From a virus (taxonomy: Duplodnaviria > Heunggongvirae > Uroviricota > Caudoviricetes): a stretch of 27,857 nucleotides of DNA. Numbering within the stretch: the first letter of the stretch is position 1; each line of letters starts with the position of its first letter. A program made the position numbers and the translations under genes. Positions 1,961 through 27,857 of the stretch are shown piece after piece. The notes under the pieces were generated by a model, which saw only the letters and a program-made list of their open reading frames with translations, was not told the origin of the DNA and ran no database searches. The DNA lies in IMG/VR virus record IMGVR_UViG_2737471861_000021. One strand, given 5' to 3'.

Positions 1961-3432
1961 CAGATGCAGCGTTATCTCCTGAAGAGCAGTTAATCGAAGA
2001 TATTGCAGGGTTCACTCACGATCCGCTTGGCTATGCCCTCTATGCGTTCCCTTGGGGGGAAGAGGGGACTGAACTGGCACATGCTACCGGTCCACGTCAG
2101 TGGCAGGCCGATGCGTTCCGAGAGATACGTGATCACCTGCAGAATCCAGAGACGCGCTATCAGCCGCTTATGCTGGCACGCGCTTCTGGTCACGGTATTG
2201 GTAAATCCGCATTCATCTCAATGCTGATCAACTGGGGCATGTCCACTTGCGAGGATTGTAAGGTCGTGGTGACCGCCAACACCGACAACCAGCTACGAAC
2301 GAAGACCTGGCCGGAAATTATCAAGTGGTCGAACCTTGCCATCACGAAAGACTGGTTTACCTGTACCGCTACCGCGATGTACAGCAATGATCCTGGGCAC
2401 GACAAGCGGTGGCGAGCTGACGCAATCCCCTGGTCTGAGCACAACACTGAGGCATTCGCCGGACTACACAACGAGCGCAAACGCATCATCGTGGTATTCG
2501 ATGAAGCGTCGAACATTGCGGATCTGGTGTGGGAAGTTGCTGAGGGGGCGCTAACGGACGAAGACACTGAGATTATCTGGGTGGCGTTCGGAAACCCTAC
2601 ACGTAACACCGGGCGTTTCCGCGAATGTTTCCGCAAATATAAACACCGCTGGAAAACTGCGCAGATTGACAGCCGGACGGTGGAAGGCACCAACAAACAG
2701 CAGTTGCAGAAATGGGTTGATGACTACGGGGAAGACAGCGACTTCGTTAAAATCCGTGTGCGCGGCATATTCCCGGATGCATCTGAATTGCAGTTTATCC
2801 CTACCGGACTTACTGACGAGGCAATGAAACGGGTGGTCACCGCTGCGCAGGTGGCGCATGCTCCGGTGATAATCGGTGTTGACCCGGCATATTCAGGCGT
2901 TGATGACGCGGTGATATACCTGCGGCAGGGGCTACACAGTAAGGTGCTGTGGACTGGCAACAAGACTACCGACGATCTGATTATGGCGAAGCGTATCGCT
3001 GACTTTGAAGACCAGTATCAGGCTGACGCGGTGTTCATCGACTTCGGTTACGGAACAGGTTTGAAGTCAATCGGTGATGGCTGGGGACGTACATGGCAAC
3101 TTGTTCCGTTCGGCGGTGCGTCCACCGATCCCCAGATGCTCAACAAGCGCGGCGAGATGTTCAACTCATGCAAGACATGGCTGAGGCTGGGCGGCATGCT
3201 TGATGACCAGGAAACAGCGGACGACCTGTCGGCGGCAGAGTACAAAGTTCGAGTGGACGGTAAAATCGTTATCGAACCGAAGGAAGATATCAAGGAGCGG
3301 CTTGGGCGTTCTCCTGGTAAAGGCGATGCGCTATTGCTGACGTTTGCCTTCCCTGTGTCGAAGCGTCTGCGAATTCCAGGTCAGCAGAACCAGCAAGGCA
3401 AGGCCATTACAGATTACGATCCCTATGCTTAA
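1957..3432 (+). CDS. Terminase large subunit
   Basis: 491-aa ORF immediately after terS with a GTGA overlap. Size, position and an ATPase-like N-terminus followed by a nuclease-like C-terminus are typical of a large terminase. Confidence 0.8.
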   Translation: MTDAALSPEEQLIEDIAGFTHDPLGYALYAFPWGEEGTELAHATGPRQWQADAFREIRDHLQNPETRYQPLMLARASGHGIGKSAFISMLINWGMSTCEDCKVVVTANTDNQLRTKTWPEIIKWSNLAITKDWFTCTATAMYSNDPGHDKRWRADAIPWSEHNTEAFAGLHNERKRIIVVFDEASNIADLVWEVAEGALTDEDTEIIWVAFGNPTRNTGRFRECFRKYKHRWKTAQIDSRTVEGTNKQQLQKWVDDYGEDSDFVKIRVRGIFPDASELQFIPTGLTDEAMKRVVTAAQVAHAPVIIGVDPAYSGVDDAVIYLRQGLHSKVLWTGNKTTDDLIMAKRIADFEDQYQADAVFIDFGYGTGLKSIGDGWGRTWQLVPFGGASTDPQMLNKRGEMFNSCKTWLRLGGMLDDQETADDLSAAEYKVRVDGKIVIEPKEDIKERLGRSPGKGDALLLTFAFPVSKRLRIPGQQNQQGKAITDYDPYA

Positions 3433-3482
3433 TCCGCTGGTGGGGATAATGTCGTTGATATCCTCTGGTGAGGATAAAACAA

Positions 3483-3507
3483 AGCCAGCTCATAGGCTGG
3501 CTGTTTG
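3483..3507. terminator. Bidirectional terminator hairpin between convergent genes
   Basis: AGCCAGC-tcatag-GCTGGCT stem-loop flanked by an A-run upstream and GTTTG downstream. Sits between terL (+) and the convergent 123-aa gene (-). Confidence 0.5.
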
Positions 3508-3519
3508 TGACATGTCACG
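3506..3519. repeat. Palindrome TGTGACATGTCACG, copy 2 of 3
   Basis: Identical 14-mer to copy 1; 4 bp beyond the stop of the minus-strand 123-aa gene and abutting the terminator hairpin. Confidence 0.7.
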
Positions 3520-3522
3520 GTG

Positions 3523-3894
3523 TTATTGCTCGCTTAACTTCTGCTTCAGCAAGTAACCTTCAAGCATCCAGATTTTGTTTACAGCATTCTGCCGGGCAAT
3601 CTTCCGACCAATTTCTGCATCAAAGTTTTCCGGGCTTGCACAGGCGCTCTCTCCGGTGACGGTGAAGCCGTTGCGCAGCACCAGGACGCAGAACGTCAGC
3701 AGAGAAAGTGATTCGTGCGGCTGGTAGTTTACCTCTCCGCCAGTATGTTTCGCTTTTATGGATTTGCCAAAGGCACCATCTTCTGCTGTGAAATATGCCT
3801 CCTGAGCAATAATGCCTTCGATATGGTCTGGCGTAACGCGCGGTGCCGTTTTGCCTTTCTCAACGATTTCTTTTTCGATTTGCTGGTCGTTCAT
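3523..3894 (-). CDS. Conserved hypothetical phage protein, reverse-oriented cargo gene (possibly N4 gp49/Sf6 gp66-like)
   Basis: 123-aa ORF on the minus strand with a strong RBS (AAGGTGAG) before its ATG. Opposite orientation to all flanking structural genes. Family guess is recollection only. Confidence 0.55.
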   Translation of the reverse strand: MNDQQIEKEIVEKGKTAPRVTPDHIEGIIAQEAYFTAEDGAFGKSIKAKHTGGEVNYQPHESLSLLTFCVLVLRNGFTVTGESACASPENFDAEIGRKIARQNAVNKIWMLEGYLLKQKLSEQ

Positions 3895-3905
3895 AATCTC
3901 ACCTT

Positions 3906-3929
3906 AAAAAAATGCCCGGCGAACCGGGC
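3906..3929 (-). terminator. Hairpin plus U-tract (minus strand) directly abutting the RBS of the 123-aa gene
   Basis: Minus-strand GCCCGG-TTCG-CCGGGC followed by TTTTTTT; the T-run ends at the RBS. Could be a terminator, attenuator or processing site. Confidence 0.4.
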
Positions 3930-4002
3930 GAACTGGAAGCAATGAGTTATGCCTTCCGTGGCTGTACGGGTTTACAGCATGAAGTCATCGCAATGGCGTC
4001 CT

Positions 4003-4049
4003 GCTGTAAAAAGGGCGGTGATAGTCCTTCAAGGGAAACCATCACCGCC
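4003..4049 (-). terminator. Possible terminator hairpin downstream of the tRNA
   Basis: 9-bp stem GGCGGTGAT/ATCACCGCC with a large loop, followed on the minus strand by CTTTTTAC. About 45 nt 3' of the tRNA. Confidence 0.3.
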
Positions 4050-4092
4050 AAGCACCTGGAACTTCTGGCATCACGGTCCTTAGGCGTGATTC

Positions 4093-4169
4093 TGGCGTGG
4101 CATGCAGGATTCGAACCTGCGACCAACCGCTTAGAAGGCGGTTGCTCTGTCCAACTGAGCTAATGCCAC
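4093..4169 (-). tRNA. tRNA-Arg (anticodon UCU)
   Basis: Minus-strand 77-nt sequence GTGGCATTAGCTCAGTTGGACAGAGCAACCGCCTTCTAAGCGGTTGGTCGCAGGTTCGAATCCTGCATGCCACGCCA folded by hand into a cloverleaf: 7-bp acceptor stem, GCTC/GAGC D-stem, anticodon loop CUUCUAA (UCU), GCAGG-TTCGAAT-CCTGC T-arm, encoded CCA. Closely resembles E. coli argU as I recall it. Confidence 0.85.
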
Positions 4170-4596
4170 AACGCTGAGAGCACTTAGCCTGTTAAGGCAC
4201 CACACTTTGTCGCGGCTCCATAAATGCTCTCATCGTTGTACCCTCGTCTCTTCCGAGGCGTCACACCGAATCGCCGGGATGGTGAATCCCCGTGCGCGGA
4301 ATAAAACCGCTCGACTTGCACATTCCGGCTACCTGGTTCGTTTGCCCGAGCAAGGGAGGGTGCCCCTTAAACGTATCCAGACCGCTATCGGCGCATGTGC
4401 CATACGCCGTACTGCTCAAAATAAAAGCTCACTCCACCTGTTCAATTTAACGACAAGCCAGTCAGGTTAGTAACCGGAATGAACTCTTTGGTTACCTGAA
4501 AGGTAATAATTTGTGCGTTAAATGTCAACTATCTACGATAAATAAATCATATGTGGTTAAATTGGTAATAATTTAATTGCGTACGGAGTCATTGAT

Positions 4597-4803
4597 ATGT
4601 GCATGGGTAGCTCACCGTCAGTGCCTGCAACACCAGAAGTTCAGGCAGCACCACAGGAGCAGGATGCCGCCGTTGTTGATGCCCGCGACGAAGAAACTCG
4701 TCGCCGTCGCGCTGCTGCTGGTCGTAGTTCTACGCTGCTTACCGGTTCTCAGGGCGACACATCAACCGCTAATACCAGCGGTAAAACGCTGCTTGGTCAG
4801 TAA
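4597..4803 (+). CDS. Small protein encoded directly upstream of the portal gene (possible minor virion protein)
   Basis: 68-aa ORF with a GGAG RBS. N-terminus 'MCMGSSPS...' and an Ala/Arg-rich middle. The alternative-frame ORF 4577..4816 looks less protein-like. Confidence 0.4.
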   Translation: MCMGSSPSVPATPEVQAAPQEQDAAVVDARDEETRRRRAAAGRSSTLLTGSQGDTSTANTSGKTLLGQ

Positions 4804-4817
4804 CCGGAGTCATTGAA

Positions 4818-9698: not shown

Positions 9699-10303
9699 TG
9701 GCCTCTGTAGTAGAGATCTGTAATCGTGCGCTGTCCAATATTGGCAATAGCCGCAGCATTAACAGCCTGAAGGAAGCCAGCAAGGAAGCGGGGGAATGTT
9801 CGCTGCACTTTGAGGCCTGCCGTGATGCTGTGCTTTCTGATTTTGACTGGAACTTTGCTACCAAACGCGTGGCGCTTGCAGATACGAGCAATCCACCGCC
9901 TGACTGGGAATATGCGTACCAGTACCCGTCAGATTGTCTGCGCATTACTGAAATTATGCTTCCTGGTGTACGCAATCCAACAGCAGCAATGCGCGTTCAG
10001 TACGAAGTTGGTGCAGACACCGACGGAACAGGAAAGTTGATCTACACAGACCAGCCGCAGGCATGGCTCAAGTATGTCTCTCGCGTTTCAGATGTGAACA
10101 TGTTTGATGCCATTTTTATGGAGGCGTTGGCCTGGCGTCTTGCGGCAGCCATTAACATGGCGCTGACTGGGGATGCGGATCTCGGTACATTTGCTCTCAA
10201 TATGTACAATCGCGTGATTCTTAGTGCTGGCTCGCATAGCCAGAATGAATCACAGGAACCACAGCCACCGGTTGACGAGTTTACCATTGCGAGGTTGTCC
10301 TGA
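9698..10303 (+). CDS. Tail adaptor / gatekeeper protein (T7 gp11-like)
   Basis: About 201 aa; N-terminal 'EICNRALSNIGNSRSINSL' resembles the gp11 N-terminus (recollection). Size and position just before the large nozzle-like gene fit. Confidence 0.5.
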   Translation: MASVVEICNRALSNIGNSRSINSLKEASKEAGECSLHFEACRDAVLSDFDWNFATKRVALADTSNPPPDWEYAYQYPSDCLRITEIMLPGVRNPTAAMRVQYEVGADTDGTGKLIYTDQPQAWLKYVSRVSDVNMFDAIFMEALAWRLAAAINMALTGDADLGTFALNMYNRVILSAGSHSQNESQEPQPPVDEFTIARLS

Positions 10304-12774
10304 TGGCTATCAGTTGGATCCAGCCCAGCTTTGCCGGTGGTGAGATTGGACCGTCGTTGTACGGTCGTATCGACATGGCGAAGTACCAGGTGGCATTGCG
10401 CAAGTGCGATAACTTTATCGTGCGGCAGTATGGCGGCGTTGAGAATCGACCTGGTACGCGTTTTGTCGGTGCCGCCAAATACCCAAATCGGAAATGCCGC
10501 CTGATCCCGTTCCAGTTCTCGACGGTTCAGACCTACGCTCTGGAGTTCGGACACCAGTACATGCGCGTTATCAAAGATGGTGCGTTGGTGCTGAACAGCA
10601 GCAATGTTATTTATGAAATTGCCACACCATATACTGAAGCCGATCTGTTCCGAATTAAATTCACGCAAAGCGCCGACGTGCTTACGCTGGTTCATCCGGC
10701 ATACCCGCCGAAAGAGTTGCGCCGCTATGCGCATGACAACTGGCAACTGGTTGATGTGGTAACGAAGAACGGGCCATTTGAAGATATCAATATTGACGAG
10801 TCAGTGACGGTTTATGCCAGCGCCAGCACCGGGACAATTACGTTAACGGCAAGCGCCTCTATTTTTGGCGCGGAGCAAGTAGGCAAATTGTTCTATCTGG
10901 AACAGCCTGCAGTGGATTTAGCACCGGTATGGGAAACCAGTAAGAGTACGTCGATTGGCGATATTCGCCGTGCAGACAGTAACTACTATCGCGCCGTTAC
11001 AGCAGGCAAAACAGGTACTTTGCGCCCTTCGCATACAGAAGGCACATCATGGGATGGCTGGGGCGGATCCGGTGATGATGATACTGGCATTGAGTGGGAG
11101 TATCTGCACAGTGGTTTTGGCATTGCCCGTATCACTGCTGCAAATGGCACTACTGCAACTGCCGAGGTAATTTCCTATATCCCTTCGCAGGTCGTTGGCG
11201 AGGATAATGCCAGCTATAAATGGGCTAAATATGCTTGGAACAGTGTTAATGGCTATCCTGGCACTGTTGTTTATTATCAACAACGTCTTTACTTCGCCGC
11301 ATCGACTGCGTTCCCTCAGACTATCTGGGCCAGCCGTACTGGGGATTATAAGGATTTTGGCAAAAGCAATCCTACGCAGGATGATGACAGAATTATCTAC
11401 ACCTATGCCGGGCGTCAGGTTAATGAGATCCGCCACCTGATTGATGTTGGTTCGCTGGTGGCGCTGACTTCCGGAGGTGAGTACGTCATCACCGGCGACC
11501 AGAACAAAGTATTAACCCCATCATCATTTGCATTCAGCTCTCAGGGATCAAATGGCTCGAGCAATGTCCCACCAATTGCCGTGGCGAATATTGCTCTGTT
11601 CGTCCAGGAGAAAGGCAGTGTTGTCCGTGATCTGGCCTACTCATTCGATGTTGACGGTTATCAGGGGAACGACCTTACTATCCTTGCCAATCATCTTTTT
11701 CAGAAGCACAGAATTGTTGACTGGTGCTTCTCGATTGTCCCTTACTCTAGTGCCTTCTGCATTCGTGATGACGGTAAATTACTGGTGATGACCTATTTGC
11801 GTGATCAGCAGGTTTTTGCATGGGCACCACAATCCAGTACCGGAAAATATGAAAGCACATGCAGTATCAGCGAAGGAAATGAAGATGCGGTGTATTTCGT
11901 CGTTAACCGAACCGTTAACGGGCAAACAGTGAGATACATCGAGAGACTGTCCAGCCGTTTATTTACCAGCGATGAAGATGCTTTCTTTGTTGATTCTGGC
12001 CTTAGCTATGATGGAAGAAATACGTCTGACAGAACGATGATCATCACTGGTGGTTCTGGTGAATGGGATTACCGCGCGGAATATACAATCAGTGTTTCTG
12101 GTGGTGCGTACTTCACCAGTAGTGATGTCGGTGCGCAACTACAGTTCCCTTATACCGGAACTGTTCCTGATACTGGCGATGAAGTGTCAAAAGAATTACG
12201 TTGCGACATTATTTCTGTAACCAGCAATACCGCTGTAGTGGTTCGTGCTAACAGGAACGTCCCGCCATCCCTCAGGAATGTGGCCACCACGAACTGGCAG
12301 ATGGCGCGCCGGACATTTGGAGGCCTGTCTCATCTTGAAGGCCAGACCGTAAACATTCTCTCTGATGCGAACGTGGAACCACAGAAAGTGGTTTCCGGAG
12401 GTGCCGTCACGCTGGAATCTCCGGGGGCTGTAGTGCACATCGGCCTGCCAATAACTGCTGAATTCGAAACACTGGATATCAACATTAACGGACAGGAAAC
12501 GCTGCTGGACAAAAAACAGGTGATCCCCTCCGTTACTCTGGTTGTGAATGCCAGTCGCGGCATCTGGGCGACTACGCCCGGCGGTAAATGGTACGAATAT
12601 CCACAGCGTGAATTCGAGTTCTACGATGATCCTGTTGATGATGCTACCGGAAAAGTAGAAGTGAAACTGGACAGTAACTGGGGCAAAAACGGACGTGTAA
12701 AAATCCGTCAGCTTGATCCGTTGCCGCTGTCTGTTCTTGCCGTTATTCCTCGCCTTACTGTTGGGGGATTCTGA
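10303..12774 (+). CDS. Tail tubular protein B / nozzle (T7 gp12-like)
   Basis: 823-aa ORF after the adaptor gene; size and order match a podovirus nozzle protein. Confidence 0.55.
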   Translation: MAISWIQPSFAGGEIGPSLYGRIDMAKYQVALRKCDNFIVRQYGGVENRPGTRFVGAAKYPNRKCRLIPFQFSTVQTYALEFGHQYMRVIKDGALVLNSSNVIYEIATPYTEADLFRIKFTQSADVLTLVHPAYPPKELRRYAHDNWQLVDVVTKNGPFEDINIDESVTVYASASTGTITLTASASIFGAEQVGKLFYLEQPAVDLAPVWETSKSTSIGDIRRADSNYYRAVTAGKTGTLRPSHTEGTSWDGWGGSGDDDTGIEWEYLHSGFGIARITAANGTTATAEVISYIPSQVVGEDNASYKWAKYAWNSVNGYPGTVVYYQQRLYFAASTAFPQTIWASRTGDYKDFGKSNPTQDDDRIIYTYAGRQVNEIRHLIDVGSLVALTSGGEYVITGDQNKVLTPSSFAFSSQGSNGSSNVPPIAVANIALFVQEKGSVVRDLAYSFDVDGYQGNDLTILANHLFQKHRIVDWCFSIVPYSSAFCIRDDGKLLVMTYLRDQQVFAWAPQSSTGKYESTCSISEGNEDAVYFVVNRTVNGQTVRYIERLSSRLFTSDEDAFFVDSGLSYDGRNTSDRTMIITGGSGEWDYRAEYTISVSGGAYFTSSDVGAQLQFPYTGTVPDTGDEVSKELRCDIISVTSNTAVVVRANRNVPPSLRNVATTNWQMARRTFGGLSHLEGQTVNILSDANVEPQKVVSGGAVTLESPGAVVHIGLPITAEFETLDININGQETLLDKKQVIPSVTLVVNASRGIWATTPGGKWYEYPQREFEFYDDPVDDATGKVEVKLDSNWGKNGRVKIRQLDPLPLSVLAVIPRLTVGGF

Positions 12775-23466: not shown

Positions 23467-24585
23467 TTATAATTTTATTCCTTTTCCGTACTTAATTAGT
23501 GGTCGTTCAATAAAAGAAAATGTAAGTGATGATAAAACACACAGTGCTACGAATAGAATTGTTATCATTGGGAGTGAGATATTTAGGTTGTTAATATCAT
23601 ATTTATCTTTAATAAAGGCAAATGAAGGATAGAAAACAACCCCTTGTAAAAGGTAAATGCTGTAAGAGCACTCCCCCAAACGAGTAAATCCCTTTATATT
23701 CAATATACCAAACAAGCTTGCGCCTTTAGCCACGCAAAGCATAAACACTGTGACTATTATCCACGGTCTAGTGCTGTTAAGTGATGGATTTAACAGTACG
23801 AATATAGTCACAGATGCTAACAGCATGAGGTCAGATGTTTTTTTTGATAATGAAATTCTGCATGATAACTCCTTAGATAGGATACCACAGGCGAAAGCAG
23901 AATAATACCAATATGATGCATCTGTAAATGATGGTAGAAAATACATACAAACAAACATAATACCAATTGAAGCTTCAAGTGGCTTGGAACGTAAAAAATA
24001 AATGATTGGTAAAGAGAAGTAGAATCCCCATTCCCACTTTATTGTCCATGTTACACCAGACAACACCAATACAGAATTATTGAATCCATTTATATTAGGT
24101 TTTATGTCAAATACACTTGCGTCAAACCATTTCAACAAATCATCCAAACTAATATTGTTGTGGTTTGTTGACATTAAAATAATATATGATACAGCAATGA
24201 ATGATGAAAGATATGTCATCGGTACGATTCTAAAAAATCTATCTTTATATAAGTTTATCCAGTCAATATTTTTTGATTTACGAATCTTTCCCCAGAAAAG
24301 AAAAGCTGTAATTGAAAAGAAAATCGCTACGCCAAATTTCCCTATTGAATAAATAAAATCAGAATGAGTAGTCCATTTATTTATTGTAAAATAATTAATA
24401 AAATAGTCTGAGTGATGGAACACAACCATGGATGCAAGAATATATCTTAGACCATCAAGATTCCGCTCCCTTGAGTAATCATGATCTTTCCCGTCTATGT
24501 AAGAAAAAACATTAGAGCTAAATAAAAGACCACATATAAAAATTGAACATCCAACCCACAAGTATATGATAACAGAGTCAGTCAT
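23467..24585 (-). CDS. Integral-membrane acyltransferase (acyltransferase family 3; O-antigen acetyltransferase-like)
   Basis: 372-aa polytopic membrane protein with 'LDGLRYILASMVVFHH' near the N-terminus and 'SYSIYLLQGVVFYP...FIERP' near the C-terminus, both typical of Acyltransferase_3 (Oac/OafA-like). Strongly AT-rich relative to the rest of the prophage. Confidence 0.75.
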   Translation of the reverse strand: MTDSVIIYLWVGCSIFICGLLFSSNVFSYIDGKDHDYSRERNLDGLRYILASMVVFHHSDYFINYFTINKWTTHSDFIYSIGKFGVAIFFSITAFLFWGKIRKSKNIDWINLYKDRFFRIVPMTYLSSFIAVSYIILMSTNHNNISLDDLLKWFDASVFDIKPNINGFNNSVLVLSGVTWTIKWEWGFYFSLPIIYFLRSKPLEASIGIMFVCMYFLPSFTDASYWYYSAFACGILSKELSCRISLSKKTSDLMLLASVTIFVLLNPSLNSTRPWIIVTVFMLCVAKGASLFGILNIKGFTRLGECSYSIYLLQGVVFYPSFAFIKDKYDINNLNISLPMITILFVALCVLSSLTFSFIERPLIKYGKGIKL

Positions 24586-24777: not shown

Positions 24778-25182
24778 ATGGCGCAAATGTTAACCACGGA
24801 AACTATAAATCAGGGTCTTAGCATGAGCGCGCTGATGTCTGTGTTCGCTGGAGTACCGCCAGAGGTGGCTTTAGGAGCTTTGGCTGGGGCGGTAATTTTT
24901 GTTACCTCAGCGGTAGAGTATCACATCCGTCGCCGGGTGCTCCTGTCGATGCTCAGCTTTCTTTGCGGCCTTCTCTTTTACAAACCAGCAGCATCAATTC
25001 TTATCGGCATAGCCAGCCTGATCCCTACCATCACGCAGGACTCTTTTGAAAAAGGGATTGTTTTCTCTGCAGGCGCATTCGTGTCAGCAATTGTCGCTGT
25101 GCGTATTGGTATATGGCTCTATCACCGTTCCGATAATCCACGCGAGTTAATTCCGGGGAGAAAAGACGATGGTAACGTATGA
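24778..25182 (+). CDS. Holin-like membrane protein (class I-like, 3-4 TM)
   Basis: ATG at 24778 (track ORF 24769..25182). Several hydrophobic segments and a charged C-terminus; first gene of the lysis cassette. Confidence 0.5.
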   Translation: MAQMLTTETINQGLSMSALMSVFAGVPPEVALGALAGAVIFVTSAVEYHIRRRVLLSMLSFLCGLLFYKPAASILIGIASLIPTITQDSFEKGIVFSAGAFVSAIVAVRIGIWLYHRSDNPRELIPGRKDDGNV

Positions 25183-25477
25183 GTTTTTTTTGCTTATCAC
25201 CAATGCAGTTATTTGCACTGGCATAGCAATTCGCGTTGTCACATTCCGGCGTAACGGCTCTCAACACCGAAGGTGGGGAGGATGGCTTGCTTATTTCCTG
25301 ATTGTTGCTGCGGCCAGTATTCCTGTTCGTGTCGCCTATGCAATCTGGTTACGTACGCCAATGGCTGTGGATTTATCTGAGGTCATTATCAACGCTGTCA
25401 TGCTAACTGCGGTTATTAAAACGCGCGGTAACGTCGTTCAAATTTTCAAAGTATCGAGGTCTAAACATGGAGATTAA
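25169..25477 (+). CDS. Second small membrane protein of the lysis cassette (holin or antiholin-like)
   Basis: 102 aa with about three TM segments; overlaps the upstream gene and precedes the endolysin. Confidence 0.45.
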
Positions 25478-26096
25478 ACAATTCCAGCGAGCTGCTGGTA
25501 TCAGTGAGTCACTGGCCGCACGCTGGTTCTCGCATATAACTTCTGCGATGAAAGAGTTTGGTATCAGCAAACCAGAAGATCAGGCTATGTTTATTGCTCA
25601 GGTCGGGCATGAGTCTGGAGGCTTCACCCGGTTGCAGGAGAATTTCAACTACAGCGTCAGCGGACTGGCTAACTTTGTTCGGGCTGGGCGTCTCACTCAG
25701 GGACAGGCCAACGCATTGGGGCGACGCGCAGGCGAACCACCATTGCCACTTGAGCGCCAGCGCGCGATCGCAAATCTGGTATACAGCAAACGCATGGGGA
25801 ACAATGCCCCTGGTGATGGCTGGAATTACCGAGGGCGCGGACTTATCCAGATTACCGGTTTGAATAACTATCGTGATTGCGGAAACGGTCTGAAGGTTGA
25901 CCTGCTGGAGAGCCCTGAACTGCTGGCGCAGGACGAATATGCGGCTCGTAGCGCGGCGTGGTTCTTCGCCAGCAAAGGATGCATGAAGTATACCGGCGAT
26001 ATTGCACGTGTAACTCTGATTATCAATGGTGGCCGGAACGGCATCGACGACCGGCGAGCGCGGTACATCACTGCCAGTAAGGTGCTGGCGGTATGA
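25467..26096 (+). CDS. Endolysin, glycoside hydrolase family 19 (chitinase-like) type
   Basis: 209 aa. '[12 protein letters not shown]', '[12 protein letters not shown]' and '[12 protein letters not shown]' are GH19 endolysin signatures; from memory it is very close to the Salmonella phage SPN1S endolysin. Confidence 0.9.
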
Positions 26097-26590
26097 TCTG
26101 GGCATTCGTAAAAGCATACTGGAAACAGTTGCTTATCGTGGCAGTGCTTGCTGTTCTGGTCATATCAGGAGTGGTTGCCTGGAATATACACGGCAGTCGC
26201 CAGTACGATGCCGGGTATGCTCAGGCGAAGGAAGATCAGAAACAGGCTGATGATAAGTTAAGGTCACAGCGTGAGCAGGAGAAAACACAAATTGAACGTG
26301 AAGCACAATCCCGTATCGATGCGGCGCGTGCTGATGCTGAGTATGCTAATTCCGCTGCTGACAGCATGCGCGCCGAGCTTGACAAAACCAGGCGGCTCGC
26401 CGAACACTATACCGGATCTTTCCCCCCTGGCACGCCAGCCAGCAAGGTCATCGGTGTGCTCGCCGACATGCTTGAAGAAAGCAACCGAGTTTACAACGCA
26501 ACAGCAGCTGAGGCTGAAAAGTATCGTATCGCAGGGGAATTCTGCGAGCAGCAATACGATTCACTGAAGAAGCAAAAATCGTGGCACTGA
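26093..26590 (+). CDS. Rz: i-spanin (Rz-like)
   Basis: 165 aa with an N-terminal TM helix ([18 protein letters not shown]) and a charged coiled-coil-like periplasmic domain; directly follows the endolysin with an ATGA overlap. Confidence 0.7.
26319..26567 (+). CDS. Rz1: o-spanin lipoprotein (Rz1-like), embedded in the +1 frame of Rz
   Basis: Internal ATG of track ORF 26271..26567. Signal peptide [17 protein letters not shown] with an LTAC lipobox, followed by a Pro-rich mature region. Lies entirely within Rz in a different frame. Confidence 0.6.
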   Translation: MRRVLMLSMLIPLLTACAPSLTKPGGSPNTIPDLSPLARQPARSSVCSPTCLKKATEFTTQQQLRLKSIVSQGNSASSNTIH

Positions 26591-26716
26591 TTTCCGGTGA
26601 CGGTATATAAAACGGTACGGGAAAAGTTGAGGTTTGTAAAAGTGTTATCACTCAATTGGTTATGGTTGTCGTAAATAATTGAGTGGGAATGATTTTAATC
26701 CCTGCACTATGAATGA

Positions 26717-26749
26717 ACAAAACCCTCTGTTACTACAGAGGGTTTTTTA
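26717..26749. terminator. Strong bidirectional rho-independent terminator
   Basis: AAAA-CCCTCTGT-tact-ACAGAGGG-TTTTTT between the lysis operon (+) and the convergent envelope genes (-). A second hairpin, CTTCAAG-N9-CTTGAAG, lies at 26751-26773. Confidence 0.65.
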
Positions 26750-26786: not shown

Positions 26787-27326
26787 TTAATTAAACCAGC
26801 TGTCCGATTTGTTCTCTTCTGCTTTGCCCACGCTTTTCATCAGATCGCGACCGCCTTCAGTCATATTTCTGTTGGCGTCAGCTTCAGATTGCACCACATC
26901 GGTTTGCGCAGCTTTGTGCTTCAGTTCCTGATCGATAAATTCGTTTTCTCGCTTAACGCGGGCTTCTTCTTTTGCCAGCGCCAGTTTTTGTTTCTGAATC
27001 TCTAAGCTGCGTAGCTCATCTTCATAACTTTGATCGCGTTTTTTGTCCGCAGAGGCTTCGGCGTCCAGTTTATCCTGACGAGCTTTCTTATTTGCCGCTG
27101 CCGTTGCCGCTCTTTTGTTAGCGGCGGCCTGGGCATTTGCGCGACGTTGCTTCTCTTGCTGGATTTCCCTGTTGCGCTCCGCGACCCATTCGTCATGCTG
27201 CCTTTGCTCTTCATTTTTACCTTGCTGTTCAGCTTCTGCTACAGCAGAGAGTTGATCCTGCAATGATGAGGCGATAGCCGGATAGCTTAAGGAGGCCAAG
27301 ATGGCGCAAAGAAAAACTTTCTTCAT
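26787..27326 (-). CDS. Secreted/periplasmic coiled-coil protein, function unknown
   Basis: 179 aa with a signal peptide (MKKVFLCAILASLSYPAIASS) and a highly charged Ala/Lys/Glu/Gln-rich helical remainder; RBS present. Confidence 0.6.
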   Translation of the reverse strand: MKKVFLCAILASLSYPAIASSLQDQLSAVAEAEQQGKNEEQRQHDEWVAERNREIQQEKQRRANAQAAANKRAATAAANKKARQDKLDAEASADKKRDQSYEDELRSLEIQKQKLALAKEEARVKRENEFIDQELKHKAAQTDVVQSEADANRNMTEGGRDLMKSVGKAEENKSDSWFN

Positions 27327-27341
27327 GACTCCTCCTGATTA

Positions 27342-27857
27342 TTAGCTCTTTTCAGGACATTTAGTATTTGGCTGAATACGCGTTTCGTTATACGTTGTGG
27401 TAATAACAACGGCTAAACCTGTCGTAAACTGGCACTCTTTACCCACCTGGGTAGAGGTATACACTTTGGTGCCTTCCTTATATGTTAAAGAAACACCTTC
27501 CACTAAGGTTTTATCATTCACCATAGAACCCACTGCCGCGCCTACAGCTCCGCCGCCAACTGCCCCTGCCGTCGTTCCGGAATTGCTGCCAGAACCGACG
27601 TTGTGGCCGATAACACCGCCAGCGACTGCGCCAATAAGCGCGCCGAAGGCTTGTGCGTTCCGTTTATTTTGGGAGTTGTCTACGGCAACTTTTGCGGGAA
27701 GAATGGAAATAATATTAACGGTTTTAGTTTCTTGTTTGGTATTCAGTTGATCGGTTTGATAAACATCGGCGGCATGATCGTCAGCATTTGACTGGCATCC
27801 TGCCAGAGTGAATGACGCTAACATTGCCACAGGCAGAAGACATTTTTTAAATTTCAT
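27342..27857 (-). CDS. Outer-membrane lipoprotein with a glycine-zipper domain (YcfJ/SlyB/17-kDa-antigen-like)
   Basis: 171 aa. Signal peptide plus lipobox (LAGC) and a Gly-zipper segment 'GALIGAVAGGVIGHNVGSG...GGGAVGAAVGS' resembling YcfJ/SlyB-type lipoproteins (recollection). Its start codon is the last triplet of the window. Confidence 0.65.
   Translation of the reverse strand: MKFKKCLLPVAMLASFTLAGCQSNADDHAADVYQTDQLNTKQETKTVNIISILPAKVAVDNSQNKRNAQAFGALIGAVAGGVIGHNVGSGSNSGTTAGAVGGGAVGAAVGSMVNDKTLVEGVSLTYKEGTKVYTSTQVGKECQFTTGLAVVITTTYNETRIQPNTKCPEKS

Follow-up and report, generated by a model that had tools for sequence, protein, structure and literature searches.

An embedded two-component spanin as the very probable final lysis function of an epsilon15/phiV10-like prophage at the guaA locus of Escherichia coli

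Introduction

The 27,857-nucleotide stretch of DNA analysed here (hereafter the window) carries a lysis cassette whose last gene contains a second open reading frame, and the locus raises the question of whether the two frames together encode a spanin and where the inner one begins. The initial annotation had read positions 26093–26590 as an i-spanin gene (Rz) with a lipoprotein gene of the o-spanin type (Rz1) nested in its +1 frame. Here we surveyed the profile matches, the lipoprotein signal, the conservation and the genomic context of the pair. We conclude with high confidence that 26093–26590 on the + strand is an embedded two-component spanin and that it is the final lysis-cassette function of a prophage of the epsilon15/phiV10 type (Uetakevirus), integrated in E. 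coli at the guaA 3′ end. The arrangement had rightly been called well known: it is found in the annotations of phiV10 and epsilon15 and was curated by Kongari et al. 2018 (PMC6139136). The pair is already catalogued, it brings nothing new for spanin biology, and the only correction made here is that of the Rz1 start codon.

Methods

Profile searches of the translated products were done with Pfam, NCBIfam and PHROG models, and the lipoprotein signal of Rz1 was judged by the PROSITE PS00013 rule. Conservation was analysed in a set of 66 distinct relatives with Rz identities of 33–100%. A contig scan with exact peptide patterns, over species-representative genomes in which copies are few, gave four loci, with two distant relatives at 49% and 33% Rz identity. 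The junction between phage and host was located by a three-way alignment of the window, the attP side of phiV10 and an empty guaA-yfgI site of E. coli. Open frames expected by chance were counted in synonymous-codon shuffles of Rz.

Results

The outer gene and the nested frame

The features of the pair are as follows.

26093–26590, + strand: Rz-type i-spanin, 165 aa (PF10721 DUF2514, phrog_312, hydropathy, AF2 model)
26292–26567, + strand: Rz1-type o-spanin gene, precursor of 91 aa from TTG, in the +1 frame of Rz (phrog_11621, conserved start)
26292–26366, + strand: Rz1 signal peptide, 25 aa, lipobox L-T-A|C (PROSITE PS00013)
26367–26564, + strand: mature Rz1 lipoprotein, 66 aa (alignment of 66 relatives)

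Rz runs from ATG 26093 to a stop codon at 26588–26590, and its product matches PF10721 (DUF2514; E=1.1e-23, 84.5 bits, cutoff 26) and the PHROG profile phrog_312 'Rz-like spanin' (E=9.4e-54), while a PDB sequence search with Rz gave no match at E<=1. The protein has a single N-terminal hydrophobic segment at about residues 4–35 (Kyte-Doolittle maximum 2.63) with a transmembrane domain at about residues 12–30, and an AF2 single-sequence model (mean pLDDT 84) has helices at residues 2–106 and 115–160 joined by the Gly/Pro linker GSFPPGTP at 107–114. Summer et al. 2007 and Kongari et al. 2018 describe an i-spanin in these terms, as a protein with one transmembrane domain at its N-terminus and then a periplasmic domain that is mostly helical. 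The one periplasmic cysteine of Rz, C151, is kept in 66/66 relatives.

The +1 frame of Rz is free of stops from 26262 to the TGA at 26565–26567, a run of 101 codons, and the nested reading frame lies wholly within Rz, with the final base of its stop (26567) 23 nt before the final base of the Rz stop (26590). The gene order also agrees with that of a spanin pair: 26292–26567 is contained in 26093–26590 in the +1 frame, and the pair comes next after a GH19 endolysin gene and two genes of holin families. The initial annotation was right in the coordinates and frame of the pair, in assigning the outer gene to the i-spanins (both profile matches bear this out) and in the length of 82 aa that it counted from ATG 26319.

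The Rz1 lipoprotein

The nested product matches phrog_11621 'Rz-like spanin' over the whole profile (E=3.6e-25). No Pfam or NCBIfam model matches Rz1, and NCBIfam searches with Rz, Rz1 and both membrane proteins of the cassette gave sub-threshold noise only. The signal passes PS00013 and its positional rules from either of two possible starts: in the 91-aa precursor the Cys is at position 26 and a K at position 4, and from ATG 26319 a signal of 16 aa precedes the lipobox Cys. The acylated Cys is encoded by 26367–26369 and is followed at +2 by Ala, which is compatible with outer-membrane sorting; the relatives have A, S, R or T at +2, and D in no case. The h-region of the signal contains a Pro.

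All seven Pro of the mature protein fall in residues 1–31 of 66, which makes its first half Pro-rich. The core S..RQP....C.PTC is conserved and the last ~18 residues are variable. At least one periplasmic cysteine is expected in a spanin pair, where it would serve intermolecular disulfides; here there are C151 of Rz and the two of the Rz1 motif C.PTC, which are kept in 65–66 of the 66 relatives. The earlier description of the nested product as a lipoprotein with a lipobox and a Pro-rich mature region is borne out by the PS00013 rule, the PHROG match and the placing of the prolines.

Conservation among relatives

A nested frame that was not conserved in relatives had been named beforehand as grounds for giving up the reading; we found the +1 frame open, the lipobox present and the embedding complete in 66/66 distinct relatives. 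The signal peptidase II lipobox expected of an o-spanin is LLTAC in 57 of them, LLAAC in three and another variant in six, and C1, RQP and C.PTC of the mature protein are invariant in the alignment of the 66.

The synonymous sites of Rz carry a further record of the inner gene. The mean minor-codon frequency in Rz drops from 0.148 upstream to 0.031 over the Rz1 signal and core and is 0.255 in the tail, so that synonymous variation in Rz is about five-fold lower exactly where the signal and core of Rz1 are encoded. Polymorphic columns make up 51% over the signal and core vs 78%, with a Fisher P=0.003 that is approximate because the relatives share phylogeny. The wobble entropy of Rz is 0.22 over mature Rz1 residues 1–35 vs 0.65 over the C-terminal part, and the last ~18 Rz1 codons show no sign of constraint in Rz synonymous-site variation.

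The start codon of Rz1

Translation of Rz1 starts most likely at TTG 26292, which is 27 bases before ATG 26319 and would give a precursor of 91 aa. One further feature is needed here.

26277–26281, + strand: AGGAG Shine-Dalgarno-like motif within Rz codons 62–63, present in 65/66 relatives

The motif lies 10 nt upstream of TTG 26292, and the wobble entropy of Rz is 0.00 at codons 62–63. Position 26292 is TTG in 62 of the relatives and ATG in three, a start codon being retained in 65/66; it is ATG in phiV10 and epsilon15. It is unlikely that the precursor is instead the 82-aa product of ATG 26319, an in-frame internal Met codon. In its favour, ATG initiates more strongly than TTG, the shorter signal peptide is of textbook lipoprotein type and passes PS00013, and 56/66 relatives have this codon. 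However, it is replaced in the other 10/66 by ACC, AGT, ACG, ATT, AAG or ATA, which are not start codons, and no Shine-Dalgarno-like sequence stands upstream of it, whereas the TTG or ATG at 26292 follows the conserved AGGAG, corresponds to the ATG start of phiV10, epsilon15 and the curated list, and falls within a stretch in which the Rz wobble positions are frozen already from codon 62. Of the 82-aa lipoprotein gene proposed initially, the reading frame and the lipobox stand and the start most likely gives way to TTG 26292. It may be that translation begins at both codons; mature Rz1 is the same from either.

The lysis cassette upstream

Three genes precede the pair.

24778–25182, + strand: first membrane protein, 134 aa, 3–4 hydrophobic segments, Phage_holin_8, candidate holin or antiholin (PF16931, phrog_198, hydropathy)
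25169–25477, + strand: second membrane protein, 102 aa, three hydrophobic segments, Phage_holin_3_7 (PF05449, phrog_217, hydropathy)
25467–26096, + strand: soluble GH19 endolysin, 209 aa (PDB 4OK7, PF00182, phrog_181)

The product of the first gene matches PF16931 (E=1.2e-12) and phrog_198 'holin' (E=1.3e-40), and its homologue in phiV10 and epsilon15 is annotated as 'membrane protein, three TMDs'. The second gene overlaps the first by 14 nt; its product matches PF05449 (E=6.7e-27) and phrog_217 'holin' (E=5e-35), and its homologue is the annotated holin of both phages. The endolysin aligns over residues 1–208 with the SPN1S endolysin (PDB 4OK7, E=4e-117) and has no hydrophobic 19-mer window, so no N-terminal SAR segment, and its stop overlaps the Rz start (ATGA). 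The initial annotation was thus right to place the spanins behind a GH19 endolysin and two distinct membrane proteins. The further claim of a complete three-step lysis system holds as far as gene content and intact reading frames go, by which the system appears complete.

The Phage_holin_8 and Phage_holin_3_7 genes belong to unrelated families and may form a heterotypic holin/antiholin pair; a lambda-like dual-start motif with positive charge is visible in neither. The literature searched on both holin families, on DUF2514 and on the lysis genes of SPN1S and phiV10 yielded genome reports and the Kongari survey only, and no experimental work was found in it. The conserved non-ATG start of Rz1 in the E. 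coli subgroup, TTG, could tune the ratio of o-spanin to i-spanin. That both ideas hold together, a TTG start with a long Shine-Dalgarno spacer setting the ratio and the two upstream families acting as a heterotypic pair, is a tentative possibility. Neither, if true, would alter the identity of the spanin pair.

Prophage context

The window covers the right arm of a Uetakevirus prophage, inserted at the guaA 3′ end, and the border of the prophage with the host lies just downstream of Rz.

26669–26685, + strand: prophage right junction, attR core ATTGAGTGGGAATGATT, last codons of host guaA (three-way alignment)
26719–26746, + strand: intrinsic-terminator-like hairpin, the host guaA terminator (12-bp stem, then a T run)

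In the three-way alignment phage DNA lies to the left of attR and host DNA to the right, and genomes with an empty site match the window solely from 26678 onward. The terminator hairpin is in host-derived sequence and now stands 130 nt downstream of Rz.

It is very improbable that the spanin genes are inactive relics of a defective prophage and that the strain has no three-step lysis. The window spans only part of the prophage and many E. coli prophages are cryptic, but all five lysis reading frames are intact with translationally coupled junctions, and the structural genes upstream are long intact frames with strong PHROG matches. Moreover, an IMG/VR contig of ~43 kb encodes a protein 100% identical to Rz, and records submitted under the names Escherichia phage Phi05_2388 B and Phi05_1999 B match the cassette at 96.6% DNA identity.

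Chance occurrence of the nested frame

The length of the Rz1 frame was dropped as evidence because an equally long +1 run, of at least 101 codons, is found in 16–20% of the synonymous-codon shuffles of Rz (P ~0.16–0.20). The lipoprotein signal is far more restrictive: with both alternative frames considered, a PS00013-type lipoprotein frame whose mature part reached 30 aa or more occurred in 240 of 50,000 shuffles (0.5%), and the six frames of the whole 27.9-kb window hold only three such frames, one of which is the genuine host lipoprotein YfgH. A PS00013 match on the minus strand, with its Cys at 12494, is antisense to a tail gene and was judged to be a chance one.

That Rz, a DUF2514 membrane protein, is the sole gene and the nested frame an untranslated accident is hardly credible: the amino-acid composition of Rz seldom yields +1 stops, RefSeq/PGAP does not call the frame and Pfam and NCBIfam have no model for it, but against this stand the rarity of the signal in the shuffles, the PHROG o-spanin match, the retention of frame, lipobox, RQP/C.PTC core, Shine-Dalgarno motif and start in 65–66 of the 66 relatives, even at Rz identities as low as 33%, and the depression of Rz synonymous variation, which relaxes downstream of the Rz1 core.

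Comparison with known spanins

The spanins of phiV10, epsilon15 and TL-2011b are placed by Kongari et al. 2018 in the 'Bcep176' embedded family, with the o-spanin in the +1 frame, its start offset by 199 nt, and lengths of 91 aa for the precursor and 66 aa for the mature protein (PMC6139136, supplementary tables). The pair described here agrees with this family in each part: Rz matches PF10721 and phrog_312 and the cassette aligns with those of the three phages, Rz1 matches phrog_11621 and has the S..RQP....C.PTC core common to phiV10 and epsilon15, and the architecture is the same (26292 − 26093 = 199 nt, +1 frame, 91/66 aa). The phage genus, the cassette order (membrane protein, holin, GH19 endolysin, Rz with nested Rz1), the C.PTC and RQP motifs and the single Rz Cys are also shared, and the nested homologues are annotated in phiV10 (PhiV10p30/p30a) and epsilon15 (p06/p07). 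The differences lie in the length of Rz, which is 165 aa here, as in its subgroup, vs 160 aa, in the Rz1 start, which is TTG vs ATG, and in the lipobox, which is LLTA|C vs LAG|C. The cassette is 87.5% identical in DNA to that of phiV10 and 80.9% to that of epsilon15; closer copies exist, and across the spanin/host junction a RefSeq E. coli chromosome shows 99.3% DNA identity.

With lambda Rz/Rz1, the experimentally characterised prototype, the pair shares the position of Rz1 wholly within Rz in the +1 frame with a start at ~0.4 L, the N-terminal transmembrane domain and two linked periplasmic helices of Rz, the signal peptidase II lipobox, the lack of Asp at +2, the Pro-rich mature region, the periplasmic cysteines and the place as last gene pair of the cassette. 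It differs in having a mature Rz1 of 66 aa vs 40 aa, two extra Rz1 Cys vs one and one periplasmic Rz Cys vs two (lambda figures from PMC6139136), and a GH19 endolysin where lambda has the transglycosylase R. Neither protein matches the lambda families PF03245 (Rz) and PF06085 (Rz1), even at E<=10. In architecture, and presumably in function too, the pair is analogous to lambda Rz/Rz1, but by sequence it stands outside the lambda families.

A tblastn search with Rz1 found nested frames of 40–55% identity in Nonagvirus/JenP1/9g-type and Klebsiella siphophages, where the overlying genes bear the annotation i-spanin/o-spanin or 'Rz-like spanin'; these phages differ in morphotype and lysis-cassette context. 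The o-spanin family therefore reaches beyond the genus Uetakevirus.

Proposed mechanism

Since no experiment on the DUF2514/phrog_11621 spanin family was found in the literature searched, the mechanism is carried over from the spanins of lambda, T7, P2 and T4. Two-component spanins as defined by Summer et al. 2007 and Kongari et al. 2018 need both genes to disrupt the outer membrane, knockouts having a spherical-cell phenotype. Rz would be a type II inner-membrane protein with a transmembrane helix at its N-terminus and a periplasmic part made of two long helices on either side of the Gly/Pro linker. Rz1 would be made from the +1 frame within Rz, its translation most likely beginning at TTG 26292 after the conserved AGGAG. 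After export it would receive its lipid at Cys26, and signal peptidase II would remove the signal peptide. By analogy with lambda Rz/Rz1, the C-terminal regions of the two proteins would bind to each other across the periplasm, and disulfides formed by C151 of Rz and by the C.PTC cysteines of Rz1 may stabilise homodimers. As in lambda, the holin would first let the soluble GH19 endolysin destroy the murein; with the murein gone, the spanin complexes could fuse the outer membrane to the inner one and so finish lysis.

Annotation value

The spanin locus is carried next to yfgI by ~530 of 5,426 complete E. coli genomes. At the 99.3%-identical E. coli locus, the one example checked, RefSeq/PGAP names Rz a 'DUF2514 family protein' and omits the nested Rz1, in keeping with the early remark that automated annotation easily misses such a gene. 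The value of the present data is practical, and the conserved TTG/ATG start, the lipobox and the C.PTC core together give a simple rule for correct annotation of Rz1. In some phage records Rz is called an 'endopeptidase', and the Tyrion record over-extends Rz1.

Nested reading frames and lysis cassette

The i-spanin gene Rz (165 aa) was located at 26093-26590 on the plus strand by ORF listing and direct reading, and its start ATG shares bases with the stop codon of the gene before it (ATGA). No stop interrupts the +1 frame of Rz between 26262 and the TGA at 26565-26567, and four candidate starts for the o-spanin lipoprotein gene Rz1 were listed in it, all reading into one same lipobox signal and mature sequence.

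26271, plus strand, +1 frame of Rz: GTG, 98 aa
26292, plus strand, +1 frame of Rz: TTG, 91 aa
26298, plus strand, +1 frame of Rz: GTG, 89 aa
26319, plus strand, +1 frame of Rz: ATG, 82 aa (start chosen in the initial annotation)

The outer ORF runs 23 nt beyond the end of the nested one, which is therefore fully embedded, and the Rz1 offset of 199 nt (66 x 3 + 1) places it in the +1 frame; the coordinates and frame first described for this lipoprotein ORF wholly inside the i-spanin gene were correct as written.

Proteins of the lysis cassette and their best family or structure matches
24778-25182: membrane protein, 134 aa; PF16931 Phage_holin_8, phrog_198
25169-25477: membrane protein, 102 aa; PF05449 Phage_holin_3_7, phrog_217
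25467-26096: endolysin, 209 aa; SPN1S GH19 endolysin 4OK7, E=4e-117
26093-26590, plus strand: Rz, 165 aa; PF10721 (DUF2514) E=1.1e-23, phrog_312 'Rz-like spanin' E=9.4e-54
26292-26567: Rz1, 91 aa; phrog_11621 'Rz-like spanin' E=3.6e-25

Searches of Pfam and NCBIfam with Rz1 matched no family. Rz has one strong hydrophobic segment close to its N terminus, and its AlphaFold2 model (single-sequence, mean pLDDT 84) has helices at 2-106 and 115-160 joined by the linker GSFPPGTP, a predicted TMD-helix-linker-helix layout as in lambda Rz. Each membrane-protein gene overlaps its downstream neighbour. A hydrophobic N-terminal segment was looked for in the endolysin and was absent, so this enzyme is expected to be soluble and to require a hole-forming holin. 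The 102-aa protein is the holin in reference annotations, PGAP and PHROGs name both membrane proteins holins, and experimental papers on these two holin-family proteins were not found in the literature searched; the sequence does not single out the holin, and the earlier caution that the holin/antiholin assignment is not trivial was justified. Judged by gene content, all three steps (holin, endolysin and spanin) are predicted to be present and intact, and on this basis the proposal of a complete three-step lysis system holds.

Chance expectation for the +1 frame

The +1 frame stayed open for 101 codons or more in 16% of 20,000 trials when the synonymous codons of Rz were shuffled and in 20% when they were resampled from the codon usage of the window, so the open frame alone is not beyond chance. 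The lipoprotein signal was scanned with the PROSITE PS00013 rule (lipobox pattern, Cys at 15-35, K/R among the first seven residues), with a start codon and a mature part of 30 residues or more also required. Only 240 of 50,000 shuffles of Rz produced such a signal in one or other alternative frame, and its presence in the nested frame is more than chance. Over the whole 27.9-kb window, read in six frames, the rule was satisfied three times, once by the genuine host lipoprotein YfgH. The sole other non-annotated ORF passing it runs antisense to a tail gene of 823 aa (10303-12774); it is read from the minus strand, has its Cys codon at 12494 and is most likely a chance match.

Conservation of Rz1 among relatives

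The relatives came from IMG/VR (80 loci), bacterial genomes (4 loci) and reference phages (3); with the copy of the window these gave 66 distinct Rz nucleotide sequences, whose protein identity ranges between 100% and 33%. All 66 have an open, fully embedded +1 frame with a lipobox (LLTAC in 57, LLAAC in 3, various xxxGC/xxGAC in 6), and the refuting observation named at the outset, a nested frame not conserved in relatives, is clearly not seen. None of the 66 has Asp at mature position +2, the mature protein has 66 aa in 63 of them, the Rz1 motifs S..RQP and C.PTC are invariant, and exactly one periplasmic Cys is retained in Rz.

The wobble position of Rz coincides with codon position 2 of Rz1; its entropy in the codon alignment was 0.67 before the overlap, 0.27 over the Rz1 signal peptide, 0.22 over mature residues 1-35 and 0.65 over the remaining C-terminal part. 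When synonymous counts were limited to codon columns with the Rz amino acid kept, mean minor-codon frequency fell from 0.148 ahead of the overlap to 0.031 in Rz codons 67-140 and rose to 0.255 in codons 141-159, with 78%, 51% and 93% of columns polymorphic, respectively (Fisher P = 0.003 for pre-overlap versus core and 0.005 for tail versus core, both approximate because the sequences are related). The low synonymous variation over the Rz1 core points to purifying selection on the second reading frame, and the alignment shows a putative functional core made of the signal peptide and about 49 mature residues. The Rz1 tail at 26514-26567 (last ~18 codons, Rz codons 141-159) is highly variable in sequence. 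Synonymous variation of Rz is not suppressed there, yet the stop position is kept in 63/66 relatives, which could reflect constraint on Rz rather than on Rz1.

Start codon of Rz1

The codon aligned to 26292 is TTG in 62 of the 66 sequences, while phiV10, epsilon15 and a Kluyvera prophage (3 in all) have ATG. The remaining one, the 33%-identity relative, has TAG at that codon, with a GAGGAG of its own and an ATG 9 nt further on. The AGGAG at 26277-26281 is kept in 65/66 relatives, and the Rz wobble is frozen from codon 62 (the SD position) through codons 67-70. The Rz1 products in the phiV10 and epsilon15 records are annotated as 91 aa, and the o-spanins of epsilon15, phiV10 and TL-2011b are described as embedded in the +1 frame, with a 91-aa precursor, a 66-aa periplasmic part and a start 199 nt into the i-spanin gene (PMC6139136, including supplementary tables), the same offset as that of TTG 26292. 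On the conserved TTG/ATG, the AGGAG, the frozen wobble and the 91-aa reference products, 26292-26567 was taken as the Rz1 gene. The nested lipoprotein of the initial annotation stands and its 82-aa length probably does not, as 10/66 relatives have a non-start codon in place of ATG 26319; the mature lipoprotein is the same whichever start is used. The observation is confirmed and its interpretation supported, with the start codon refined.

Known families and public records

The pair belongs to the 'Bcep176' embedded two-component spanin family of Kongari et al. 2018 (PMC6139136), where epsilon15, phiV10, TL-2011b and SPN1S stand under both i-spanin and o-spanin and with which all its architectural numbers agree. 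The arrangement is well known, as said at the outset, and nothing in this pair is new; the allele is the TTG-start, 165-aa-Rz, LLTA|C variant common in E. coli prophages. Against the lambda families PF03245 and PF06085 no match was obtained at E<=10; lambda Rz/Rz1 would share the way of working, but the pair lies outside their sequence families. Rz1 homologues of 40-55% identity also occur inside annotated i-spanin genes of unrelated siphophages.

Neither Pfam nor NCBIfam has a model for this o-spanin family. The gene is easily missed by automated annotation, as had been anticipated: the 99.3%-identical RefSeq/PGAP locus (NZ_CM132283.1, 2694-3191) shows only a 'DUF2514 family protein' for Rz and leaves out the nested o-spanin. 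Several GenBank phage records give Rz the name 'endopeptidase' or lack Rz1, and the o-spanin CDS in the Tyrion RefSeq record (2946-3365) is over-extended to 139 aa.

A nested lipobox o-spanin is typical of phages with Gram-negative hosts. A 33%-identical Rz with such an o-spanin was seen at 2501-2971 of QFQR01000010.1, from a MAG labelled Leifsonia xyli; this contig, binned as an actinobacterium, is probably mis-binned.

Proposed lysis mechanism

Both reading frames and their conservation are directly supported, as are the membrane-anchor signals and the place in the cassette, and from the lambda Rz/Rz1 work summarised in PMC6139136 we infer the following steps. Rz would insert into the inner membrane, and Rz1 would be lipid-modified at Cys26, lose its signal peptide to signal peptidase II and reach the outer membrane through Lol transport. 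Both proteins may then associate by their C-terminal parts through the murein meshwork, with homodimers locked by Dsb-dependent disulfides for which Rz C151 and the C.PTC cysteines of Rz1 are candidates. Once the holin has triggered and the GH19 endolysin has degraded the murein, the complexes would fuse both membranes. No experimental test of a 'Bcep176'-family spanin was found in the literature searched.

Prophage and host context

Megablast against phage records assigned the cassette to the genus Uetakevirus, with 96.6% identity to Escherichia phage Phi05_2388 B, 90.7% to PAS61, 87.5% to phiV10, 80.9% to epsilon15 and ~80% to Tyrion; the remaining window genes include terminase, portal/adaptor, major head, tail and tailspike. 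From 26678 on (guaA 3' end, yfgI, yfgH) the window matches essentially every complete E. coli genome. The phage part is present at >=80% coverage in 530 of 5,426 such genomes, and about 530 of them carry a related prophage at the guaA site. Three-way alignment placed the prophage-host junction at ~26669-26685, with the att core ATTGAGTGGGAATGATT being the last guaA codons, so the spanin pair is the last coding feature of the prophage right arm; the host guaA terminator (26719-26746) comes after it.

26787-27326, minus strand: host yfgI, beyond the junction
27342-27857, minus strand: host yfgH, glycine-zipper lipoprotein
23467-24585, minus strand: O-antigen-type acyltransferase, membrane protein, 372 aa; Acyl_transf_3, PF01757 E=5.6e-23
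4093-4169, minus strand: tRNA-Arg (anticodon TCT); Rfam tRNA 73 bits

The acyltransferase gene lies in opposite orientation, with the tailspike gene on one side and the lysis cassette on the other, in the slot of the phiV10 O-antigen acetyltransferase and the epsilon15 serotype-conversion genes, and is probably a serotype-converting or superinfection-exclusion gene. The tRNA-Arg sits in an ORF-poor gap of ~1.4 kb (3433-4817) between the terminase large subunit and portal/adaptor genes, which otherwise holds only a 123-aa ORF at 3523-3894 (minus strand; phrog_322, unknown function), and the stretch looks like a moron-type insertion supplying a rare-codon tRNA.
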